From a virus: a stretch of 64,000 bases of DNA. Position numbers and translations under genes: made by a program. Positions 1 through 7,646 of this stretch are shown one piece after another. The stretch spans positions 64,001 through 128,000 of the IMG/VR virus record IMGVR_UViG_3300044658_000058; one strand, 5' to 3'. The notes below the pieces were generated by a model that did no database searches, had not been told where the DNA came from, and saw only the letters and a program-made list of their open reading frames with translations. Within the stretch, counting starts at the first letter, position 1, and every line of letters starts with the position of its first letter.

Positions 1-1023
1 ATCAGAACCGTGATCAAGAGAACTGTTGATAGGCAAAACTGGCGCTACGAATGCCGTAGTCGAAGCTTGGTTACCAGTGTTTGTCAAAGATGAAGGATGA
101 CCGGCCCAACGGATATAATCAGACTGTTGATTGATTACTTCCTTGTAATATGAAGTAGCACCATTGTCATACTTGGCATCTACAGCTTTCGAAATCTTCT
201 GATAAACTTCAAGGACTTCGCCACGCTGATTTGTCCAAAGACCATCTTCGTCAACGACAACGACGTGCATTTCATCGTCTGAACCACCAAGATTTGCAAC
301 GTAGTCAGAAGTACCCGGAGCGTTGTCAACTACAGTGTAGAATTCCCAACGACGCACGGCAGTCTGGCCAGTACCGCCAGCAATGTGACGTGAATCGAGA
401 GTCAACGAAGTTGTATTACCGATTGCAGCAACAGAGTGAGTTTCGCCATTGATAACCAAAAGGTCACCAACAACAACCTGTGTTGTAAAGTTTGTTCCAG
501 TACCGGTAACTGTAAGAGTATTTGCAGTAACGGAAACTGTACCAGTCAAAGTAGACTGATAAGCAGCCGCCGAAGGGCAAACCGCTACTTTCAAAGAGTT
601 ACCCATAGCGCCAGCGAACTTAGCAATCCATGGACCAGTATTGAAAGAAGATTGAAGACTACCAGTGTCGTAAGAAGCAGAATATTCTTCATCGTTACGA
701 ACAAGGAAACCGGCTGTACCGGCAGAAGCGTTGGTAGCTCTTAGAGCGGTGTTAGCGTTGTTATCGTTGACAACACGAACAATCCATAGGTTGTTAGCGT
801 ATGCCAAGAAATTAGCAGCCGAGAACCAGTCGTTAGCGACAGTATTGTTTGGTTTCCAGAAAGTATCGACAAGCTCTTGTTCTGAATCGATAGAGACAAG
901 CTGATCTACTGGACCCCACTGGAAAGAACCGGCCAAGCCACCTTCCGTAGTCGAAACCGCAGGAATGATATTGGTTGTGTCGAATTCTTTTACGTACACA
1001 CCGGCTGATAAATAGAATGGCAT
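1..1023 (-). CDS. 18: Tail sheath protein (T4 gp18 homolog), 5' part; runs off the window
   Basis: Manual translation from ATG at 1023: MPFYLSAGVYVKEFDTTNIIPAVSTTEGGLAGSFQWGPVDQ..., the typical gp18 N-terminus; absent from the ORF track because there is no stop in the window. Confidence 0.93.
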   Translation of the reverse strand, partial: MPFYLSAGVYVKEFDTTNIIPAVSTTEGGLAGSFQWGPVDQLVSIDSEQELVDTFWKPNNTVANDWFSAANFLAYANNLWIVRVVNDNNANTALRATNASAGTAGFLVRNDEEYSASYDTGSLQSSFNTGPWIAKFAGAMGNSLKVAVCPSAAAYQSTLTGTVSVTANTLTVTGTGTNFTTQVVVGDLLVINGETHSVAAIGNTTSLTLDSRHIAGGTGQTAVRRWEFYTVVDNAPGTSDYVANLGGSDDEMHVVVVDEDGLWTNQRGEVLEVYQKISKAVDAKYDNGATSYYKEVINQQSDYIRWAGHPSSLTNTGNQASTTAFVAPVLPINSSLDHGSD

Positions 1024-1028
1024 GGAAT

Positions 1029-1066
1029 TACTCCCTATTATTATTGTTATATGCGGGAGTATTTAG
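1029..1066 (-). promoter_or_regulatory. Late promoter CTAAATA plus an RBS-sequestering hairpin upstream of gp18
   Basis: CTAAATA at 1066-1060; inverted repeat TACTCCC (1029-1035) / GGGAGTA (1055-1061) covers the GGGAG Shine-Dalgarno. Confidence 0.6.
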
Positions 1067-1121
1067 GATTCGGCCCTTTTTAACTTAATTTTGACCTAAA
1101 TAGAGGTAAAAATGGTCAATT

Positions 1122-1433
1122 ATGACCATGCGGGGCACGATATTGGATACAAAGAATCCTTTCTTTGGGAAAAAGCACACGGCTGAATCCCGCAAAAAAA
1201 TCAAAGAGAATCATGTTGGTATGTCTGGGAAAAAACATTCTCCGGAAACGAAAGAAAAAATGTCAGCCGCTCATACTGGACGAAATTGGGTCTACAAAGG
1301 AATGGTGAACAAATCCATTCCGAGCGAAGAACTGCAAACCTATCTGGATAACGGTTGGCTACGGGGCAGAGCTATCGATAAAAGAGGATCGAAGAGCTAC
1401 ATGTTGAAATTTTTGTTTGAAAATTCCCCTTGA
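1122..1433 (+). CDS. NUMOD3 DNA-binding repeat protein (homing-endonuclease-derived, no nuclease domain)
   Basis: KNPFFGKKHTAESRKKI and GKKHSPETKEKMS repeats; C-terminal YLDNGWLRGR; no GIY-YIG or HNH motif. Confidence 0.75.
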   Translation: MTMRGTILDTKNPFFGKKHTAESRKKIKENHVGMSGKKHSPETKEKMSAAHTGRNWVYKGMVNKSIPSEELQTYLDNGWLRGRAIDKRGSKSYMLKFLFENSP

Positions 1434-1458
1434 CATTCATTCATATAACCGATATATT
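1430..1458 (+). promoter_or_regulatory. sigma70-type early promoter
   Basis: TTGACA-17 nt-TATATT. Confidence 0.75.
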
Positions 1459-1494
1459 GAAACCATAGTCATCGATTTAATGAAAGGTTTGTGA

Positions 1495-1704
1495 ATGGCT
1501 GATAAAGGCAACCGGGTTCAGATGGCGCAGATTGTTGCGTTCGCCAATTTTCCCGATTTGAAGCGCTTTCCCGACGAACGACACATTGTCGTGCGCAAAG
1601 AGTTGCGGCGCAATTTCGGGAATCTTAAGGACCAGTACGACTTGGCCCTTGCCAAGCTGGCCGCCGAACAGCGCACCATTCCCATTTCCCTTCCGGTCGC
1701 ATAA
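1495..1704 (+). CDS. Hypothetical protein
   Basis: First ORF after the promoter, AAGG RBS. Confidence 0.6.
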   Translation: MADKGNRVQMAQIVAFANFPDLKRFPDERHIVVRKELRRNFGNLKDQYDLALAKLAAEQRTIPISLPVA

Positions 1705-1877
1705 GATGGGTTGGCTTATTCCGATACCATTTTTGTTGGTGCTGTTGGCCATCGTCTGGCGAGCCCAACGAAAGCATGTGGCCGGGCGGGAAGCCCTGAT
1801 CGAATCGCAGGCGAAGCGTATCAAGGAACTTGAATACGAAAACTATTGCCTGAAATACCCACTGTTAAGGAGTCGAG

Positions 1878-2249
1878 ATGACTGAACAAGGTGAGAAGCC
1901 GGACAATTTGGATTATTACATTGTCCGTGGCGGAATGTCGTGGGGACGTGACGAAGACCTTAAGACGGCCTTCTTCAATTGGTTCAAGAATGAACGGCCA
2001 ATAGGCGATACCAAGGTCGTCGTCCACCAAGTCGCCGCCAGTGCCACGGTCGATGATTTCGGTCGCCTGAACTGGTTTGAAAAAGACGGGGAGCCGCCGA
2101 AGTTGGGCGAAATCGTCGTCACCAAGAAGCTCATTGACCGGTACAACGCCGTCATGAACGATCTTGACGAACTTCTAGTGCCGGTCGAAGAAAAATTCGA
2201 TTGGGACTTGGCCATGCACAACGGAGAAAAAGCCGATGAAAAAGCTTGA
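1878..2249 (+). CDS. Hypothetical protein
   Basis: AAGGAG RBS, 123 aa, in operon. Confidence 0.7.
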   Translation: MTEQGEKPDNLDYYIVRGGMSWGRDEDLKTAFFNWFKNERPIGDTKVVVHQVAASATVDDFGRLNWFEKDGEPPKLGEIVVTKKLIDRYNAVMNDLDELLVPVEEKFDWDLAMHNGEKADEKA

Positions 2250-2369
2250 ACCAAAGGTAGGTGATGTGGTCGCCTTCAACAAACTGCCGGATGCCGCATG
2301 GTTCGACGTTCTGGAAATTCAATTTGGCACTGATGGCACACGATTTTCTGATTTTTTGGCTTTTTGTTG

Positions 2370-2400
2370 TTGACAAACGAATAAAACTCTTTTATAAATA
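2370..2400 (+). promoter_or_regulatory. Composite early (TTGACA-17-TATAAA) and T4 late (TATAAATA) promoter for the tmRNA
   Basis: TTGACA 2370-2375; TATAAATA 2393-2400. Confidence 0.8.
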
Positions 2401-2404
2401 TACA

Positions 2405-2697
2405 TGAAACTGTTCGACGCCAAAGAGGATGACTGCAACACGGCGGTTCAAATCCGCCCACCTCCACCAAAACTCTCGACTCCACTTTATTTAGTCGAAA
2501 TATGGGGGTGACTTGGGATCGACTGCGGTAGGAATTTGAGGTTTAGGTTTCCGGCATTGTACCGCCGTTACCGGGCTAAACAAAGTAAGAGACAACGATA
2601 ACTTCGTTCCTCTGGCTGTCGCTGCCTAATCAGCAGTAAGCCAATGAGTTTTGGCGGTTGAACTTGGAAACAGAATCAACCGTCGCTTCCATTTTTC
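2405..2697 (+). ncRNA. ssrA: Circularly permuted (two-piece) tmRNA
   Basis: Acceptor piece first: T-arm GGCGG-TTCAAAT-CCGCC, then CACCTCC-A-CCA ending at 2469. Coding piece starts GGGGGTG at 2504, giving a G3:U70 Ala identity pair. Tag frame 2591-2629 reads DNDNFVPLAVAA*. Outer ends approximate. Confidence 0.93.
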
Positions 2698-2720
2698 AGG
2701 GAACAATTTGAGTAGAATAT

Positions 2721-2837
2721 GAAACATACGCTCGCAATCCAAAGTTCTATAACGGAACGTTCTGTTGCCAGTGCAAAGAACACAAGCCTTTGAGTGAATT
2801 CCATTGGTCTGGCACAACGGAAGTGGTTGGGTCTTGA
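2721..2837 (+). pseudogene. Start-less C-terminal remnant of a small Cys-rich phage protein
   Basis: Frame reads ETYARNPKFYNGTFCCQCKEHKPLSEFHWSGTTEVVGS*, with an upstream in-frame TGA and no start codon. Confidence 0.5.
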
Positions 2838-3058
2838 AAAAAGACCTAGACCCAGATTTTTGGGATGATTTCGTTTCTCTTGCACAGTCTTATGCTTCCA
2901 TTATGCAAGGCGACGTTTACGATAGTCAGATAAATTCTGCCTATGCCATCATGAAGAAATATGGCCTTGACGAGTATGGCCATCCTCCGGAAGACGAAGA
3001 AGACGACACGCCGGTTTACACCAACAATGGACCTAAGCCGAAGAAGGCGTCGGATTGA
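2804..3058 (+). CDS. Hypothetical protein (true start possibly TTG at 2834)
   Basis: ORF in operon, overlaps the start of the next gene. Confidence 0.55.
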   Translation: MVWHNGSGWVLKKDLDPDFWDDFVSLAQSYASIMQGDVYDSQINSAYAIMKKYGLDEYGHPPEDEEDDTPVYTNNGPKPKKASD

Positions 3059-3285
3059 ACGAATTCCTAAATGACTTCGAATCTCTGTTCGGAGTCCCCG
3101 ACAAGCCCAAGCGAGACTTCACCAAGGAAGTCCAAACCACCCAAGCAAATCCGGATGCTAAGAAGCTGATAACCATTCGGCTTGACCGGGATATTTTAGC
3201 ATATTTTCAACAGCAAGGCGAAGGGTATCAAACCCGAATCAATAATGCTTTGCGAGAATTCATGAATCAAAGATTAAAGAAATGA
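3055..3285 (+). CDS. BrnA-family antitoxin-like protein (ribbon-helix-helix)
   Basis: KKLITIRLDRDILAYFQQQGEGYQTRINNALREFM matches the BrnA C-terminal signature. Confidence 0.85.
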   Translation: MNEFLNDFESLFGVPDKPKRDFTKEVQTTQANPDAKKLITIRLDRDILAYFQQQGEGYQTRINNALREFMNQRLKK

Positions 3286-3382
3286 TGTTTGTATTAGGCG
3301 TTCTATTTGGCGCAATCGTAGTTGCCATAGTTGGCCTAGCCTTATTGGGCTACTTTTTTAAAGATTTCATGAGATACTAAGT

Positions 3383-3763
3383 GTGCGCTTAATCAGCGAA
3401 CAGGAATTTTCAGAAAAATTAATTTTTGAACTTTCCGACGAAGAATTTTCGGAATTTGGAGTGGTCACCGGGCCGGGTCGTTCAGGCGCAATCGCCTCTG
3501 TTTATGCCTCTCACTTCCTCCACATACCATTCATCCCGTATGGTGCAAACGCACCGGTCCACCTTGGCCGCTTGCTGATTATTGACACTGCTGAACAGAC
3601 CGGGAAGACCATCCGCAAAGCATCACGTCGTTATGAGAATGTGCCGCATACCGTGTTCACGCTCTACAAAGAGCCGCCACGGGTTTATTTTTGGTATGAG
3701 AATCAGCCACAACGACAAGAAAGAATAAATGAACAATCTACCGAACATTCTGACCAAGGATAG
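3383..3763 (+). CDS. Phosphoribosyltransferase-like protein
   Basis: GPGRSGAIAS..SHFLHIP and PRPP-loop-like LLIIDTAEQTGKT. Confidence 0.65.
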   Translation: MRLISEQEFSEKLIFELSDEEFSEFGVVTGPGRSGAIASVYASHFLHIPFIPYGANAPVHLGRLLIIDTAEQTGKTIRKASRRYENVPHTVFTLYKEPPRVYFWYENQPQRQERINEQSTEHSDQG

Positions 3764-3962
3764 TTTTTCTAAGGAAGTCGAAAAATTCGTTCTGGAAACC
3801 GGTTCCGATTATATGGATGCCGTGCTGCACATTTGTCAGCTTAGGGATATAGAGCCCGAAACAGCCGCCAAGCTTCTGAATGCCAATCTGAAAAACATGA
3901 TTGAAAAGGAAGCTAGTTCCCTGAACCTAGTCGAGAAAACACAAAGCCTTTCATTCGAATGA
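3729..3962 (+). CDS. 33: Late transcription coactivator (gp33)
   Basis: FSKEVEKFV..DYMDAVLHIC..IEPETAAKLL; synteny 33-59-32. Confidence 0.88.
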   Translation: MNNLPNILTKDSFSKEVEKFVLETGSDYMDAVLHICQLRDIEPETAAKLLNANLKNMIEKEASSLNLVEKTQSLSFE

Positions 3963-4564
3963 TATCGCCAGAGAGAACGAAACAAATTTTCGTTGCTCTT
4001 CGTCTGCATTTCACCGGGTCATACGACTACATTAAATATCAAGGCAAGACTCGGGCCGGACTAAAGCCAGCGGAAACATGGGCAGTCGAGAAGATTGCCT
4101 ACAAATTTCAGAACGAAAATACCGTTCGGGATTTCTTCGTTGCTAATATGATCGATTCATATGTGAAGTCTGGCAAAATCGTCGGCTTCATCGGTTCTTA
4201 CGCCAACAAAGAAGCGACAGAAATTTACGAAAAATCAACAAACTGGTACAATGCATCCTACAATCTGACTTCGGATTTGAAAAAATTCGATAGTCTGAAA
4301 GATGCCGTCCTGTGTATTGACGGTAATCATCCGAAAATTTTTCAGTATGTTTTAGATGGAGAAATTTCTATATTCACCATGGCGTGTGTAATGCTTCAAA
4401 TGGGTGATCATATTGTGAGATATTGGAATAAGAATTGCGATGATACGGTATTGTTTGGTGGATATATTCAATTTTTGAAAAAGTATGTTCCACTTATACC
4501 AAAAGATAGTGAAAAAATAAAAGAAACAATAAGCAGCTATAATTACAAGACAAGGAATACATGA
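3959..4564 (+). CDS. 59: Helicase loader (gp59)
   Basis: FVALRLHFTGSYDYIKYQGK, FFVAN; synteny. Confidence 0.88.
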   Translation: MISPERTKQIFVALRLHFTGSYDYIKYQGKTRAGLKPAETWAVEKIAYKFQNENTVRDFFVANMIDSYVKSGKIVGFIGSYANKEATEIYEKSTNWYNASYNLTSDLKKFDSLKDAVLCIDGNHPKIFQYVLDGEISIFTMACVMLQMGDHIVRYWNKNCDDTVLFGGYIQFLKKYVPLIPKDSEKIKETISSYNYKTRNT

Positions 4565-4785
4565 GAAGATCAAGAATCGAACGTCGTAACGAATGGCGTG
4601 ATGCCAATCGCCGGACCAATGGAGAACCAAATCAGCCATGGGTTTCGACTGTAGACCCACGCTATGAGCCGGTAGAAGTCAAGAGCAAGAAATACGCATC
4701 GAACGGCAAGCGTGAAGTTGCCCGTCGCCTTCGACAAGCTGGTGAACATTACAATCCCGAGTGGCTTGAACAGATGGGCGCTTAA
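4561..4785 (+). CDS. Hypothetical basic protein
   Basis: ATGA overlap with gp59, AAGGA RBS. Confidence 0.6.
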   Translation: MRRSRIERRNEWRDANRRTNGEPNQPWVSTVDPRYEPVEVKSKKYASNGKREVARRLRQAGEHYNPEWLEQMGA

Positions 4786-4786
4786 G

Positions 4787-5125
4787 ATGAACCTGAATGA
4801 GTACGCTGAACAATGCCACAAGGCAAACGCCAAGTGGTGGCCGGAAGACGTTCGAACCCGCAACAAAGGCGAGGCAATCGCCTTGATGCATTCCGAGCTA
4901 TCGGAAGCCTTGGAGGGCGAACGTAAGAATCTGATGGACGACAAGCTTCCACATCGCAAGATGGCAGAAGTAGAATTTGTCGATACGCTCATTCGAATTT
5001 TCGATTATTGCCACGCCTTCGGTTATGATTTGGAAGGCGCTTTTCAAGAGAAGATGGCCTATAACGCCATTCGGGAAGATCACAAGCTTGAAAATAGAAT
5101 GAAAGAAAACGGAAAGAAATTTTAA
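4787..5125 (+). CDS. MazG-like NTP pyrophosphohydrolase
   Basis: IALMHSELSEALEGERK..EVEFVDTLIRIFD..EKMAYN; start moved to ATG 4787. Confidence 0.82.
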   Translation: MNLNEYAEQCHKANAKWWPEDVRTRNKGEAIALMHSELSEALEGERKNLMDDKLPHRKMAEVEFVDTLIRIFDYCHAFGYDLEGAFQEKMAYNAIREDHKLENRMKENGKKF

Positions 5126-5130
5126 ATTTC

Positions 5131-5161
5131 TTGACTTTTCGATGATCTTCTGATATAAATA
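5131..5161 (+). promoter_or_regulatory. Composite early/late promoter of gene 32
   Basis: TTGACT-17-TATAAATA. Confidence 0.78.
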
Positions 5162-5280
5162 AAAGATATTATGTCTGTGTGGTTAAGAAAAGATATCAAC
5201 AATACGTCAATTTTATTATGCAGACGAAACTAATGTAGTTTCAGGAGTGGATATGACAAAATATAGGATAAAAATAATAA

Positions 5281-6156
5281 ATGTCACTATCCCTTTCAGA
5301 CTTGAAAAAGTCTTCGAAAACTCGTCTCGATAACCTAATCACAAAATCCCAAGCAAATGCAGAACAAGGCGCTAAGGACGCTCGCTTTTGGCAACCAACC
5401 GTTGACAAAGCTGGTAACGGCAGTGCTGTAATTCGCTTCCTTCCCGCTTCGAAGGAAGATGGCATTGACGCTCTCCCATGGGTAAAGTACTTTGAACACG
5501 GCTTCAAAGGCCCATCGGGCAAGTGGTATATCGAAAAATCCCTCACTTCGCTAGGTCAGAAAGACCCCGTTTCCGAGTATAATTCTAAGCTTTGGAACAA
5601 GGGGACCGATGAAGCAAAGGAAATCGCACGTTCGCAGAAGCGTAAGCTTGTGTTCGTGTCGAACATTCTGGTAATTACCGATCCGGGCAATCCAGAAAAT
5701 AACGGTAAGGTGTTCCTGTTTAAGTACGGTCAGAAGATTTTTGAGAAGATCAAGAATATCATGACTCCGGACGAAGCGCTTGGTGAAGAACCAAACGATC
5801 CGTTCGACTTCTGGACAGGCCAGAACTTCAAGCTTAAGATCAAGAAAGTTGGCGATTTCCGCAACTATGACGACTCTAGCTTCGCTAATCAGTCTGTTCT
5901 TTTCAAGAAAGATGAAGAAATCGAAGCGGTCTGGAATTCGCAGTACTCACTTGGTGAATTCCTTGATCCTAAGAACTACGAAACCTACGAAGAACTGGAA
6001 AAGAAGTTGTTCGACGTTCTACAGATTCAGACCGAATCTGTGTCAACGACCGCTGAACGTCTTTCCATGAAGGTTGATGCCGCCGTGGCTGATGCCAGTG
6101 CGGAAGTTGAAGCCGGTGAAGATGCCGACTTGGACGAAATTCTGAAAAACCTCTAA
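5281..6156 (+). CDS. 32: Single-stranded DNA-binding protein (gp32)
   Basis: DARFWQPTVDKAGNGSAVIRFLP, HGFKG..KWYIE, NGKVFLFKYG, acidic tail. Confidence 0.96.
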   Translation: MSLSLSDLKKSSKTRLDNLITKSQANAEQGAKDARFWQPTVDKAGNGSAVIRFLPASKEDGIDALPWVKYFEHGFKGPSGKWYIEKSLTSLGQKDPVSEYNSKLWNKGTDEAKEIARSQKRKLVFVSNILVITDPGNPENNGKVFLFKYGQKIFEKIKNIMTPDEALGEEPNDPFDFWTGQNFKLKIKKVGDFRNYDDSSFANQSVLFKKDEEIEAVWNSQYSLGEFLDPKNYETYEELEKKLFDVLQIQTESVSTTAERLSMKVDAAVADASAEVEAGEDADLDEILKNL

Positions 6157-6158
6157 GG

Positions 6159-6280
6159 TTTCAGAAAGCAGTGCGAAAGTTGAAAACTTGGGAACCCCAC
6201 CAAGACTGCGAAAAGGGGACCATTTTGGGCGGCTATAAAGACTTGTTACACGGTTCTCCACCGTGGCCCGGAACGGAGAA
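6159..6280 (+). ncRNA. Candidate tandem pseudoknot RNA element 3' of gene 32
   Basis: Two units sharing one architecture but not sequence (see findings). Confidence 0.5.
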
Positions 6281-6291
6281 AGGACGAAGAT

Positions 6292-6777
6292 TTATTCTTC
6301 GTCCTTTTTTTCATTTTTGAGAGCATCCAAAGTTTGCTCTAGAGTGCCGGTGAACACGGCTTTATCGATATAGACCTTGGCATTCCCGCCTGTGTCCGGC
6401 ATATACACTTTTCTCTTTTTCTCAATATAGGCCATCTTGGCAGAGAAAATGTTCACCTTCTTTTCGTTGCCGTCAATGATGGTTTTCAACAATCCATTGA
6501 GTGCCTGAAAGTCTTTGTCGTCCTCCGTATCGGATGCTATTTGTGCGGCCTTTTCAGCGGCTTCTACAGCGATTTCCAAAGCGTCGGCAATGTTGCGTCT
6601 CGCTTCCTCGAAATCTCTCTGTAGCTCTTGTTCTTCGGCATCCATGGGCTCTATGACCGCTCCACCGACCTGTGGCTGTACGGTTGGTAGGTTTTCGTGT
6701 TGCACGTCTGTTAGGTTTTCGTGCTCTTCCGGTTCGGCATCGATATCCAAAACTTCATGAATTAACTTTTTTGTCAT
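6292..6777 (-). CDS. 16: Terminase small subunit (gp16)
   Basis: DFEEARRNI..FQALNGLLKT..VFTGTLEQ pattern; follows gp15. Confidence 0.75.
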   Translation of the reverse strand: MTKKLIHEVLDIDAEPEEHENLTDVQHENLPTVQPQVGGAVIEPMDAEEQELQRDFEEARRNIADALEIAVEAAEKAAQIASDTEDDKDFQALNGLLKTIIDGNEKKVNIFSAKMAYIEKKRKVYMPDTGGNAKVYIDKAVFTGTLEQTLDALKNEKKDEE

Positions 6778-7646
6778 TTATCTGTTCCTGTCACAGGATC
6801 ATACTTTTTACCATCCTGAAATTCTTCGATGGACGTGATGAATCCGTAATCGTCTTCCTTATTTATGTCCTGATACGGGATTGTAAGATTTGGGTCTGAT
6901 GTTGGTTGTCCATCGGAAGTTAGACCGGGGGTGACCACAATTCGAGCGATACGACCATTGGCCTGCATTTCATCTTCCGTGATCTTGCCAAGCCCCGGAA
7001 TCGAGTGGAAATCCACCTGAACACGCTTGATCACACCGGATTTCTGGATTGGTCCGAAAATCCATCCATCGACTTCGAAATTGAAAGTAGCGGTCAACAC
7101 ACGGCGCTCTTTGAAGTCGCCATCGTAAATGTCTTCTATCTCCGGAGCGTCTAGCATATTCACTCTGGCATCGTATTTGTAGGCAGAGCCCGGTATCAAA
7201 TCGAGTGTGGTGTTGAAATCAGAGTTGAAGAAAGGAACAATCTGTTCGATCACCTGATACACGTCGTCGGTATTCACGGACATGACATAAAGTTGGAACT
7301 TGAATTTGACGGAAACAGGCATGAATTGTGAAAGAACTTTGTTGCCGTCATCAACAATAGACACCAATTTGTGAACGGCGTTGTTCTTACGAGACTCATC
7401 AATGGTGAAACCGTCACATATGAACCCCATGCGAGGCAATTGAATTTTCACAACCGGGCTATCAGCCGGATGATGCTTCATCAGAGCATACCATTTCTGC
7501 TTGGGAGCATATGTGATAGGAACCGGAATTTGCTGTAATTCGGTCTTGTCAGCCGACAAACGAGTGACAAATATTTCGTTGAAAATATTTCCGAACATAA
7601 TAACATATTTTCGAGTGGTCGAGTGATAGAATGAATGACCTAGCAT
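6774..7646 (-). CDS. 15: Tail sheath stabilizer/terminator (gp15)
   Basis: MLGHSFYHSTTRKYVIMFGNIFN, VPITYAPKQK, LPRMGF, QVIEQIVPFF. Confidence 0.93.
   Translation of the reverse strand: MLGHSFYHSTTRKYVIMFGNIFNEIFVTRLSADKTELQQIPVPITYAPKQKWYALMKHHPADSPVVKIQLPRMGFICDGFTIDESRKNNAVHKLVSIVDDGNKVLSQFMPVSVKFKFQLYVMSVNTDDVYQVIEQIVPFFNSDFNTTLDLIPGSAYKYDARVNMLDAPEIEDIYDGDFKERRVLTATFNFEVDGWIFGPIQKSGVIKRVQVDFHSIPGLGKITEDEMQANGRIARIVVTPGLTSDGQPTSDPNLTIPYQDINKEDDYGFITSIEEFQDGKKYDPVTGTDK

Follow-up and report, generated by a model that had tools for sequence, protein, structure and literature searches.

A tmRNA gene carried by a virus raises the question of whether it is a working ribosome-rescue gene of the phage, an RNA that interferes with the rescue system of the host, or a stray copy of a host gene. 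The gene considered here lies in a stretch of 64,000 nucleotides (the window), which corresponds to bases 64001–128000 of a 153,292-bp IMG/VR virus record with an estimated completeness of 85%. T4-type baseplate wedge, hub and tail genes are present in the window, and the surroundings of the tmRNA consist, in order, of the tail sheath gene, small ORFs, the tmRNA itself, further small ORFs, a gp33-like late coactivator gene (3729–3962), the gp59 helicase loader gene, a MazG-like pyrophosphatase gene and gp32 (5281–6156). T4-type baseplate, sheath, gp33, gp59 and gp32 genes flank the tmRNA on both sides. Because these genes surround it and no tyrosine integrase is found in the entire 153-kb record (85% complete), we place the gene inside a lytic-type phage genome; judged from this gene content, it is internal to a T4-like genome and is neither a host flank nor an attachment-site remnant. 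Genes for tRNA-Ala, tRNA-Leu, tRNA-Met and tRNA-Ile are also present in the record, outside the window. The lack of smpB, noted in the initial annotation for the window, extends to the whole 153-kb record.

Identity of the gene is indicated by two kinds of search, both of which the initial annotation had proposed. ARAGORN calls one permuted tmRNA at 2376–2720 with the tag DNDNFVPLAVAA. The Rfam 15 model tmRNA_permuted (RF04321, gathering cut-off 47 bits) aligns to 2406–2629 over its full length (model positions 1–213) with 102.1 bits (E 9e-19), and alpha_tmRNA (RF01849, cut-off 50 bits) aligns to 2366–2684 with 82.8 bits (E 6e-21). Over the whole gene, beta_tmRNA (60.1 bits, cut-off 84) and cyano_tmRNA (26.7 bits, cut-off 70) are both under threshold. 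The order of elements is permuted, as the T-arm, the acceptor 3' strand and CCA (2442–2469) precede the acceptor 5' strand (2504–2510). With ARAGORN and two Rfam models above their cut-offs, the original claim of a circularly permuted two-piece tmRNA carried by a phage holds, the tag frame is complete, and the positions first given for the T-arm, acceptor strands, spacer hairpin and tag agree base by base with ours. The accompanying statement that permuted ssrA is the alphaproteobacterial form was too broad; Alphaproteobacteria do have it, and so do Betaproteobacteria and Cyanobacteria. When the whole precursor is folded by minimum energy, the T-arm is not recovered, so that single-sequence folding of the full RNA is uninformative and structure is discussed below element by element. 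Comparisons are made with IMG/VR contigs (numbered with an L), in which 80 loci were recovered through gp32. The nearest of them, L010–L012 and L013, have the same locus with the same flanking genes at 79–86% nucleotide identity. The alpha_tmRNA score is 83 bits here as against 126–130 bits in close relatives.

All parts of the tmRNA gene are described on the plus strand. The acceptor piece (2406–2469) begins where the RF04321 alignment starts, and ARAGORN puts the 3' tRNA domain here. It comprises a P2 strand (2406–2437), the junction A+CAC (2438–2441) and, by direct reading, the T-arm GGCGG-TTCAAAT-CCGCC (2442–2458), the acceptor 3' strand CACCTCC (2459–2465), the discriminator A (2466) and an encoded CCA (2467–2469). 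The following 34-nt spacer (2470–2503) is predicted to be removed in processing. It contains the hairpin TCGACT/AGTCGA (2476–2481/2493–2498), as had been described before; its energy is −5.4 kcal/mol (z −2.6; 6/200 shuffles as good), and the length of the spacer in relatives ranges from 16 to 175 nt. The 5' part of the coding piece (2504–2553, delimited by the Rfam alignments) carries the acceptor 5' strand GGGGGTG (2504–2510, direct reading), the D-loop analogue ACTTGGGATCGA with the SmpB-contact GAC ending at 2522, and the second P2 strand. GGGGGTG and CACCTCC form all seven pairs of the acceptor stem with G3 opposite U70, in agreement with the earlier reading. The local fold of 2437–2510, which includes the T-arm, acceptor stem and spacer hairpin, has an energy of −23.7 kcal/mol (z −4.0), and none of 200 shuffles is as good. 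G3:U70, A73, CCA, a canonical T-loop, the SmpB-contact GAC and the U-A frame ruler are intact.

The tRNA-like domain is not of the alphaproteobacterial type, for which a GGC(A/G)GTA T-loop and a GGAC junction would be expected; the T-loop here is the canonical TTCAAAT. At the junction before the T-stem an A×C mismatch is followed by CAC, whereas nearly all relatives have a G-C pair and GAC. The conserved G-GAC junction between P2a and the T-stem (a sequence feature rather than a formal family criterion) is therefore absent. The A-CAC variant is present in 21 IMG/VR contigs, in permuted, apparently standard and tiny frame-less forms, and since it recurs in this way it is, on its distribution, a heritable type and not decay. 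The outer part of P2 is weak, with a duplex energy equal to the shuffle mean. Taken alone, the tRNA-like module has beta_tmRNA as its best match within the Rfam clan (38.9 bits), and 2406–2553 matches none of the 120 alphaproteobacterial tmRNAs compared. Given the variant junction and the weak outer P2, activity with an alphaproteobacterial SmpB would not be assured. The tiny forms include RNAs of about 75 nt in two large IMG/VR contigs (L108:4800-4871 and L116:1060-1130), which lack a coding frame and are built only from a tmRNA-like acceptor stem, a D-loop analogue (GGGTTTCGAC) and, joined by a short connector, a T-arm that ends in CCA. They resemble the CDS-less tmRNA reported for mycobacteriophage DS6A (PMC11915505).

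The remainder of the coding piece is alphaproteobacterial in character, with an alpha-type PK1, an NDN tag and a PK2 with the ..AACAGAA loop. The PK1 region with the leader to the resume codon spans 2554–2590. A 25-mer of PK1 has an exact match in at least 120 alphaproteobacterial genomes, and the region 2554–2690 matches all 120 alphaproteobacterial tmRNAs compared, at 78–81% identity. The tag frame GAC AAC GAT AAC TTC GTT CCT CTG GCT GTC GCT GCC TAA (2591–2629) encodes the peptide DNDNFVPLAVAA. In the Rfam alignment, its first codons GAC AAC GAT AAC are homologous to the alpha consensus GCA AAC GAY AAC, and GAC is therefore assigned to the resume position. The E. coli frame is set by U85-A86 and the resume codon starts four nucleotides after this A (PMC2481249). 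In the window, U2586-A2587 is followed by A-G-A and then G2591, which is the spacing of the E. coli rule with U-A at −5/−4. The frame, its ruler and a hydrophobic C-terminus ending in ..AA are all found. The GAC resume codon, reported from the outset in place of the usual GCN, is thus supported by homology to the alpha consensus, by the U-A ruler and by the same GAC in the closest relatives. The tag of L011, DNDNFVPLAIAA, has this GAC too and differs at two codons, one synonymously (GCT/GCA) and one conservatively (GTC/ATC, Val/Ile); in numbers this small, such differences are the pattern that would be expected of a translated frame.

The Asp codon is fixed in the sub-clade formed by the window and L010–L012. 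All 115 of the bacterial tags from alphaproteobacterial tmRNAs that share the PK1 of the window start with ANDN and hence with Ala, and in other phages with a tmRNA at the gp33 locus the first residue is Ala, or Gly in phage Mosig and L026. Asp-first tags are found in Mycoplasma. In Helicobacter pylori the resume codon is GUA, again a non-alanine codon (PMC2584231). Because non-alanine resume codons are known in bacteria, the Asp codon is unusual for the lineage, not unprecedented. With the alanine carried by the RNA itself, the mature tag would read A-DNDNFVPLAVAA. It retains NDNF and ends in AVAA at the C-terminus, and in this resembles the bacterial tags ANDNFAPVAVAA and ANDN(T/S)(E/K)VLAVAA. 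In Caulobacter, NDNF is the SspB-alpha contact and the terminal ..AA is the ClpX degron. Judged from the tag and PK1, the host is probably an alphaproteobacterium. Tags ending in LAVAA are found in Acetobacteraceae within a set that was chosen by PK1 match and is hence biased.

PK2 occupies 2641–2684, and its hairpin (2653–2661/2676–2684, loop ACTTGGAAACAGAA) corresponds to PK2 of two-piece tmRNAs (PMC3985003). Across 10 phage tmRNAs all nine hairpin pairs change on both sides, and 87.8% of the hairpin cells are paired, compared with 49.1% in shuffles (0/500 reach the observed value) and 30–53% when the partner strand is slid. The motif CCAA (2641–2644) could pair with TTGG (2664–2667) as the pseudoknot stem. 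Downstream lies the 3' tail GCTTCCATTTTTC (2685–2697), whose T-run is kept in L011 and L013; a scan of this region finds no canonical intrinsic terminator. A putative 24-codon ORF, MKHTLAIQSSITERSVASAKNTSL (2719–2793, +), begins right after the tail with GAGTAG before it and lies in a stretch (2720–3293) that is 82% identical in nucleotides to L011.

The initial annotation had also proposed that the acceptor piece pairs with the coding piece over a longer distance. Complementarity does exist between GTTCGACGCCAAA (2412–2424) and TTTGGCGGTTGAAC (2650–2663), with 13 pairs and one bulge. The energy of this duplex is −23.7 kcal/mol as against −15.4 ± 2.9 kcal/mol in shuffles and is reached by 0.85% of them; in a slightly different frame, 12% of shuffles reach it. 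However, the 3' strand of the proposed helix contains the 5' strand of the covarying PK2 hairpin. L011 and L013 have no acceptor sequence complementary to the 3' half despite having the same 3' half, and in no relative is the duplex better than its own shuffles (fractions 0.36–0.86). The complementarity therefore stands as such, while a conserved helix does not. Because of the overlap with PK2, the PK2 covariation and the lack of a counterpart in relatives, we treat the long-range helix as fortuitous, at most a transient alternative that the RNA of the window alone might form. PK2 covariation and absence from L011 and L013 are also the grounds for rejecting 2412–2424/2650–2663 as a helix left by loop opening in the permutation.

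The upstream region reads as a promoter of composite design. A −35-like hexamer TTGACA (2370–2375) is situated 17 nt upstream of TATAAATA (2393–2400), which is both a −10-like element (TATAAA) and a T4-type late-promoter motif; both elements come from direct reading. TTGAC is found at the same position before the tmRNA in most relatives. The genome contains 15 copies of TATAAATA. Nine of them fall between genes, in a genome with only 8.6% non-coding sequence, and eight lie 24–39 nt upstream of same-strand gene starts, mostly of structural genes. By this placement, TATAAATA is a late-promoter motif in the phage genome. TTGAC(A/T) stands exactly 17 nt upstream in three of the 15 copies, those of the tmRNA, gp32 and tRNA-Ala, where 0.07 would be expected from a background of 0.0044 per site (binomial P ~4e-5). 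The copy before gp32 (TTGACT-N17-TATAAATA, window 5131–5161, +) is also present in L011 and L013, and the copy before tRNA-Ala(UGC), again TTGACT-N17-TATAAATA, lies outside the window at genome positions ~8795–8767 on the minus strand. The same composite precedes the tmRNA in phage Melnitz and in L035, and L021 has an offset version. The tmRNA promoter of L011 and L013 is TTGACT-N17-TATACA, so the late element is not universal. A simple promoter scan did not list the tmRNA site because TATAAA lacks the usual final T. The dual early/late promoter proposed at first is well supported at the sequence level, since the TTGACA-N17-TATAAATA design is met again before gp32, before tRNA-Ala and before the tmRNAs of Melnitz and L035. 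Its sharing by the tmRNA, tRNA-Ala, gp32 and the Melnitz tmRNA suggests that the RNA is wanted throughout infection, not only early as has been proposed for Melnitz. Transcription starting about 6 nt past the motif would have its first nucleotide near 2406, the position at which the Rfam alignment opens, and from this spacing the 5' end of the acceptor piece may be put at about 2406.

Comparison with L011 reveals that the gene is a mosaic. Identity to L011 is 52% in the promoter, 39% in the acceptor piece, 41% in the spacer, 65% in the acceptor 5' strand with the D-loop analogue and 52% in the P2 strand. It then rises to 92% from PK1 to the resume codon, 95% in the tag and 98% in PK2, values above those of the flanking genes (79–86%). 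The right-hand end of the divergent block is the 2504–2553 segment, and the block is a self-contained structural unit which includes both acceptor-stem strands and both P2 strands. By these identities, a replacement relative to the nearest relatives has taken place that covers the promoter, the tRNA-like domain and P2. The mRNA-like half is nearly identical to that of L010–L012 and L013, whereas their promoter, acceptor piece, spacer and P2 have no relation to those of the window; these relatives are of the alpha type with the T-arm TCGGGGGCGGAACCCGA, the acceptor stem GGGCTAG/CTAGTCC, a 75-nt spacer and the TATACA promoter. Because L011 and the more distant L013 share the alpha type, the tRNA-like domain of the window is taken to be the derived state. 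Between L011 and L013, the acceptor and T stems differ by compensatory changes.

Only L009 has a tRNA-like domain closely similar to that of the window. Of viral contigs, L009 alone contains the exact 25-mer of the module; of genomes, two Planctomycetia MAGs do, and their copies may be generic tmRNA 3' ends. The pattern GGGGGTGACNTGGGATCGACT occurs in L009 and in two protein-coding coincidences (L241, L242). No donor of the module was found in genomes or in two metagenome scans. A stretch of 227 bp in the window corresponds to ~1.27 kb in L011, where two extra ORFs precede the tmRNA; about 1 kb with two such ORFs is a trait of the nearest relatives generally. Since no informative family was found for the two ORFs of L011, a homing-endonuclease explanation for the swap is unsupported. 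Separately, an ORF of 103 aa (window 1122–1433, +) about 1 kb upstream of the mosaic region contains two NUMOD3 motifs (PF07460, 56 bits) without a nuclease domain. This ORF, which L011 has as well, probably derives from a homing endonuclease, as a remnant or a DNA-binding fragment.

Taken together, the observations make it likely that an uncultured, lytic T4-like phage has at this locus a working ssrA gene whose product is a two-piece tmRNA. Intact elements, conserved position, PK2 covariation, promoter motifs and a tag like the bacterial ones all support function. Expression, processing, charging, tagging and benefit to the phage are deduced from the sequence, and the following steps are proposed accordingly as a model. 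Transcription would begin at the composite promoter near 2406, by host sigma-70 polymerase early and by phage gp55/gp33-type machinery late. Host tRNA-processing enzymes would cut at G2504 (RNase P) and at the encoded CCA, discarding the 34-nt spacer, and the resulting acceptor piece of ~64 nt and coding piece of ~185 nt would be held together by the acceptor stem and P2. Host AlaRS could charge the RNA through G3:U70 and A73. As the phage has no smpB, host SmpB would be used, with EF-Tu, to deliver the RNA to stalled ribosomes. Translation would resume on GAC 2591, appending (A)DNDNFVPLAVAA, and because the tag keeps NDNF and the AVAA degron, the tagged proteins should go to ClpXP. The likely benefit would be a rescue capacity that persists for the whole infection, despite the shutdown of host RNA synthesis and the cleavage of mRNAs. 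Near the tmRNA, about 360 nt 3' of it, lies a gene for a BrnA-family antitoxin of 76 aa (window 3055–3285, +; PF14384, 63 bits; phrog_4692). The ORF just before it (2804–3058), examined for a BrnT toxin domain, has no Pfam match of any kind even at E<=10. It may be speculated that a lone phage antitoxin and the adjoining rescue RNA could both counter host RNase toxins.

Another explanation for such an RNA would be a decoy or competitor, whose variant tRNA-like domain binds host SmpB, AlaRS or EF-Tu and so damps or redirects host trans-translation. The missing G-GAC junction would suit this role, as would the fact that the A-CAC variant is common to the tiny RNAs of L108 and L116, which consist of a tRNA-like domain alone with no coding frame; one CDS-less phage tmRNA, that of DS6A, reportedly inhibits the cell's own tmRNA in E. 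coli (PMC11915505). However, a decoy needs no complete PK1, U-A ruler, tag frame or PK2, yet these are kept at 92–98% identity, the degron-like AVAA end is preserved, and the changes in the tag are synonymous or conservative. We consider a decoy unlikely. The same conservation bears on the idea that the gene is a decaying or passenger copy of host ssrA (the remnant of a prophage attachment site, for instance, or a chimera made in assembly) that plays no part in the phage. Phages that integrate at ssrA can carry its fragments (PMC9004378), but the gene here is complete, lies deep inside a lytic T4-like genome in a record with no integrase, holds a conserved position in many independent contigs and is more conserved in its mRNA-like half than its flanks. 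A passenger copy is accordingly very improbable.

A further alternative concerns the tag and not the RNA. The first templated tag position has a role in SspB-alpha binding. An Asp there might weaken or alter recognition by SspB-alpha, so that phage-tagged proteins would be handled unlike host-tagged ones, and the fixation of Asp in the window and L010–L012, against Ala in 115/115 of the alphaproteobacterial tags compared, is in keeping with this. On the other hand, both the NDNF core and the AVAA end are kept, the mature tag still opens with the Ala that the tmRNA itself carries, and no consistent trend emerges, as other phages at the locus use Ala or Gly. An altered fate of the tag is therefore quite improbable, and we retain the reading of a functional rescue RNA.

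How the functional gene came to be a mosaic invites a more tentative proposal. In T4-like phages, the place upstream of gp33 where ssrA sits might serve as a site of exchange, with one module made up of the promoter, acceptor piece, spacer and P2 (tRNA-like) and another of PK1, tag and PK2 (mRNA-like) swapped independently of each other, and the gene of the window might be a recent chimera of a non-alpha tRNA-like domain with an alphaproteobacterial tag module. If so, phages could re-fit the tmRNA to the SmpB, AlaRS and RNase P of a new host and still keep a tag readable by host proteases, and through its Asp resume codon the tag would bear a mark specific to the phage. The sharp module boundary against close relatives amounts to a natural domain-swap experiment, which shows that the tRNA-like domain and P2 are exchangeable as a unit, and the phage of the window and L011 offer paired natural constructs on the tmRNA features that need to match host SmpB.

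The structural scanner finds a permuted tRNA-like domain in 19 of the 80 gp32-recovered loci, always on the same strand as gp32 and upstream of it; when only loci with over 5 kb of sequence upstream are considered, 15 of 30 carry one, at 1.6–5.5 kb from gp32. Seven related T4-like contigs (L036, L042, L058, L059, L061, L062 and L065) have permuted tmRNAs at this locus with canonical T-loops and tags such as ANDERFALAA, ANDEKFALAA and ANDESYALAA, which look betaproteobacterial in type. With such ANDE-type tags at the same position, the locus holds different tmRNA lineages in different phages. ARAGORN 1.2.41 misses six of the relatives (L010:2188-2500, L011:2928-3283, L012, L023:3007-3160, L074:1766-1850 and L009:3960-4222), examples having the acceptor stem GGGCTAG/CTAGTCC with a 75-nt spacer; a simple structural scan finds all six, and Rfam also finds L009 and L011. 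Published counts are 53 two-piece tmRNAs among 18,146 phage genomes (PMC9004378) and 79 phage sequences in the tmRNA database (PMC11915505). Because ARAGORN misses several relatives, counts of phage tmRNAs based on it are probably too low.

Phage-borne two-piece tmRNAs are nevertheless already documented in related marine phages, contrary to the novelty that the initial annotation implied. Methylophilales phage Melnitz carries a two-piece ssrA directly upstream of its late-transcription coactivator gene; this ssrA has been related to the ssrA genes of SAR11 bacteria and of the myophages that infect them (Buchholz et al. 2022, PMC9004378). Our searches confirm permuted tmRNAs in Melnitz (113 bits) and in the Pelagibacter phages Mosig (94 bits) and HTVC008M (91 bits). 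Like the phage of the window, all three are T4-like (Kyanoviridae-type) myophages with no phage smpB reported. In Melnitz and HTVC008M the tmRNA lies upstream of a gp33-type gene, followed in Melnitz by gp59 and gp32 as in the window, and the Melnitz tmRNA is preceded by TTGACA-N17-TATAAATA. No glutamine riboswitch like that of Melnitz is found near the tmRNA of the window (positions 1–7000, at gathering thresholds or E<=1). Nucleotide searches with the tmRNA and with the first 20 kb of the window against 50,697 GenBank phages give no match, and the tmRNA is too distant from those of Melnitz, HTVC008M and Mosig for blastn to align them. Ochrobactrum phage vB_OspM_OC, the best gp6 match, was set aside as a relative because it has no permuted tmRNA. 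The gene differs from those of Melnitz, HTVC008M and Mosig in that its tag starts with Asp, where theirs start with Ala or Gly, and in its canonical T-loop and A-CAC junction, where theirs have the alpha-type T-loop and GGAC. With the alphaproteobacterial two-piece tmRNA of the Caulobacter type (RF01849; Keiler, Shapiro and Williams 2000, as cited in the review PMC3985003) it shares the order of acceptor piece, spacer and coding piece, a tag flanked by PK1 and PK2, and an NDNF...AVAA-type tag, and it departs from this type in its Asp resume codon, its non-alpha tRNA-like module and its phage carrier. The existence of the gene thus changes little in what is known of phage tmRNAs; what it adds is modest and consists in the chimeric build of the gene, the resume codon for Asp and a composite promoter that recurs.
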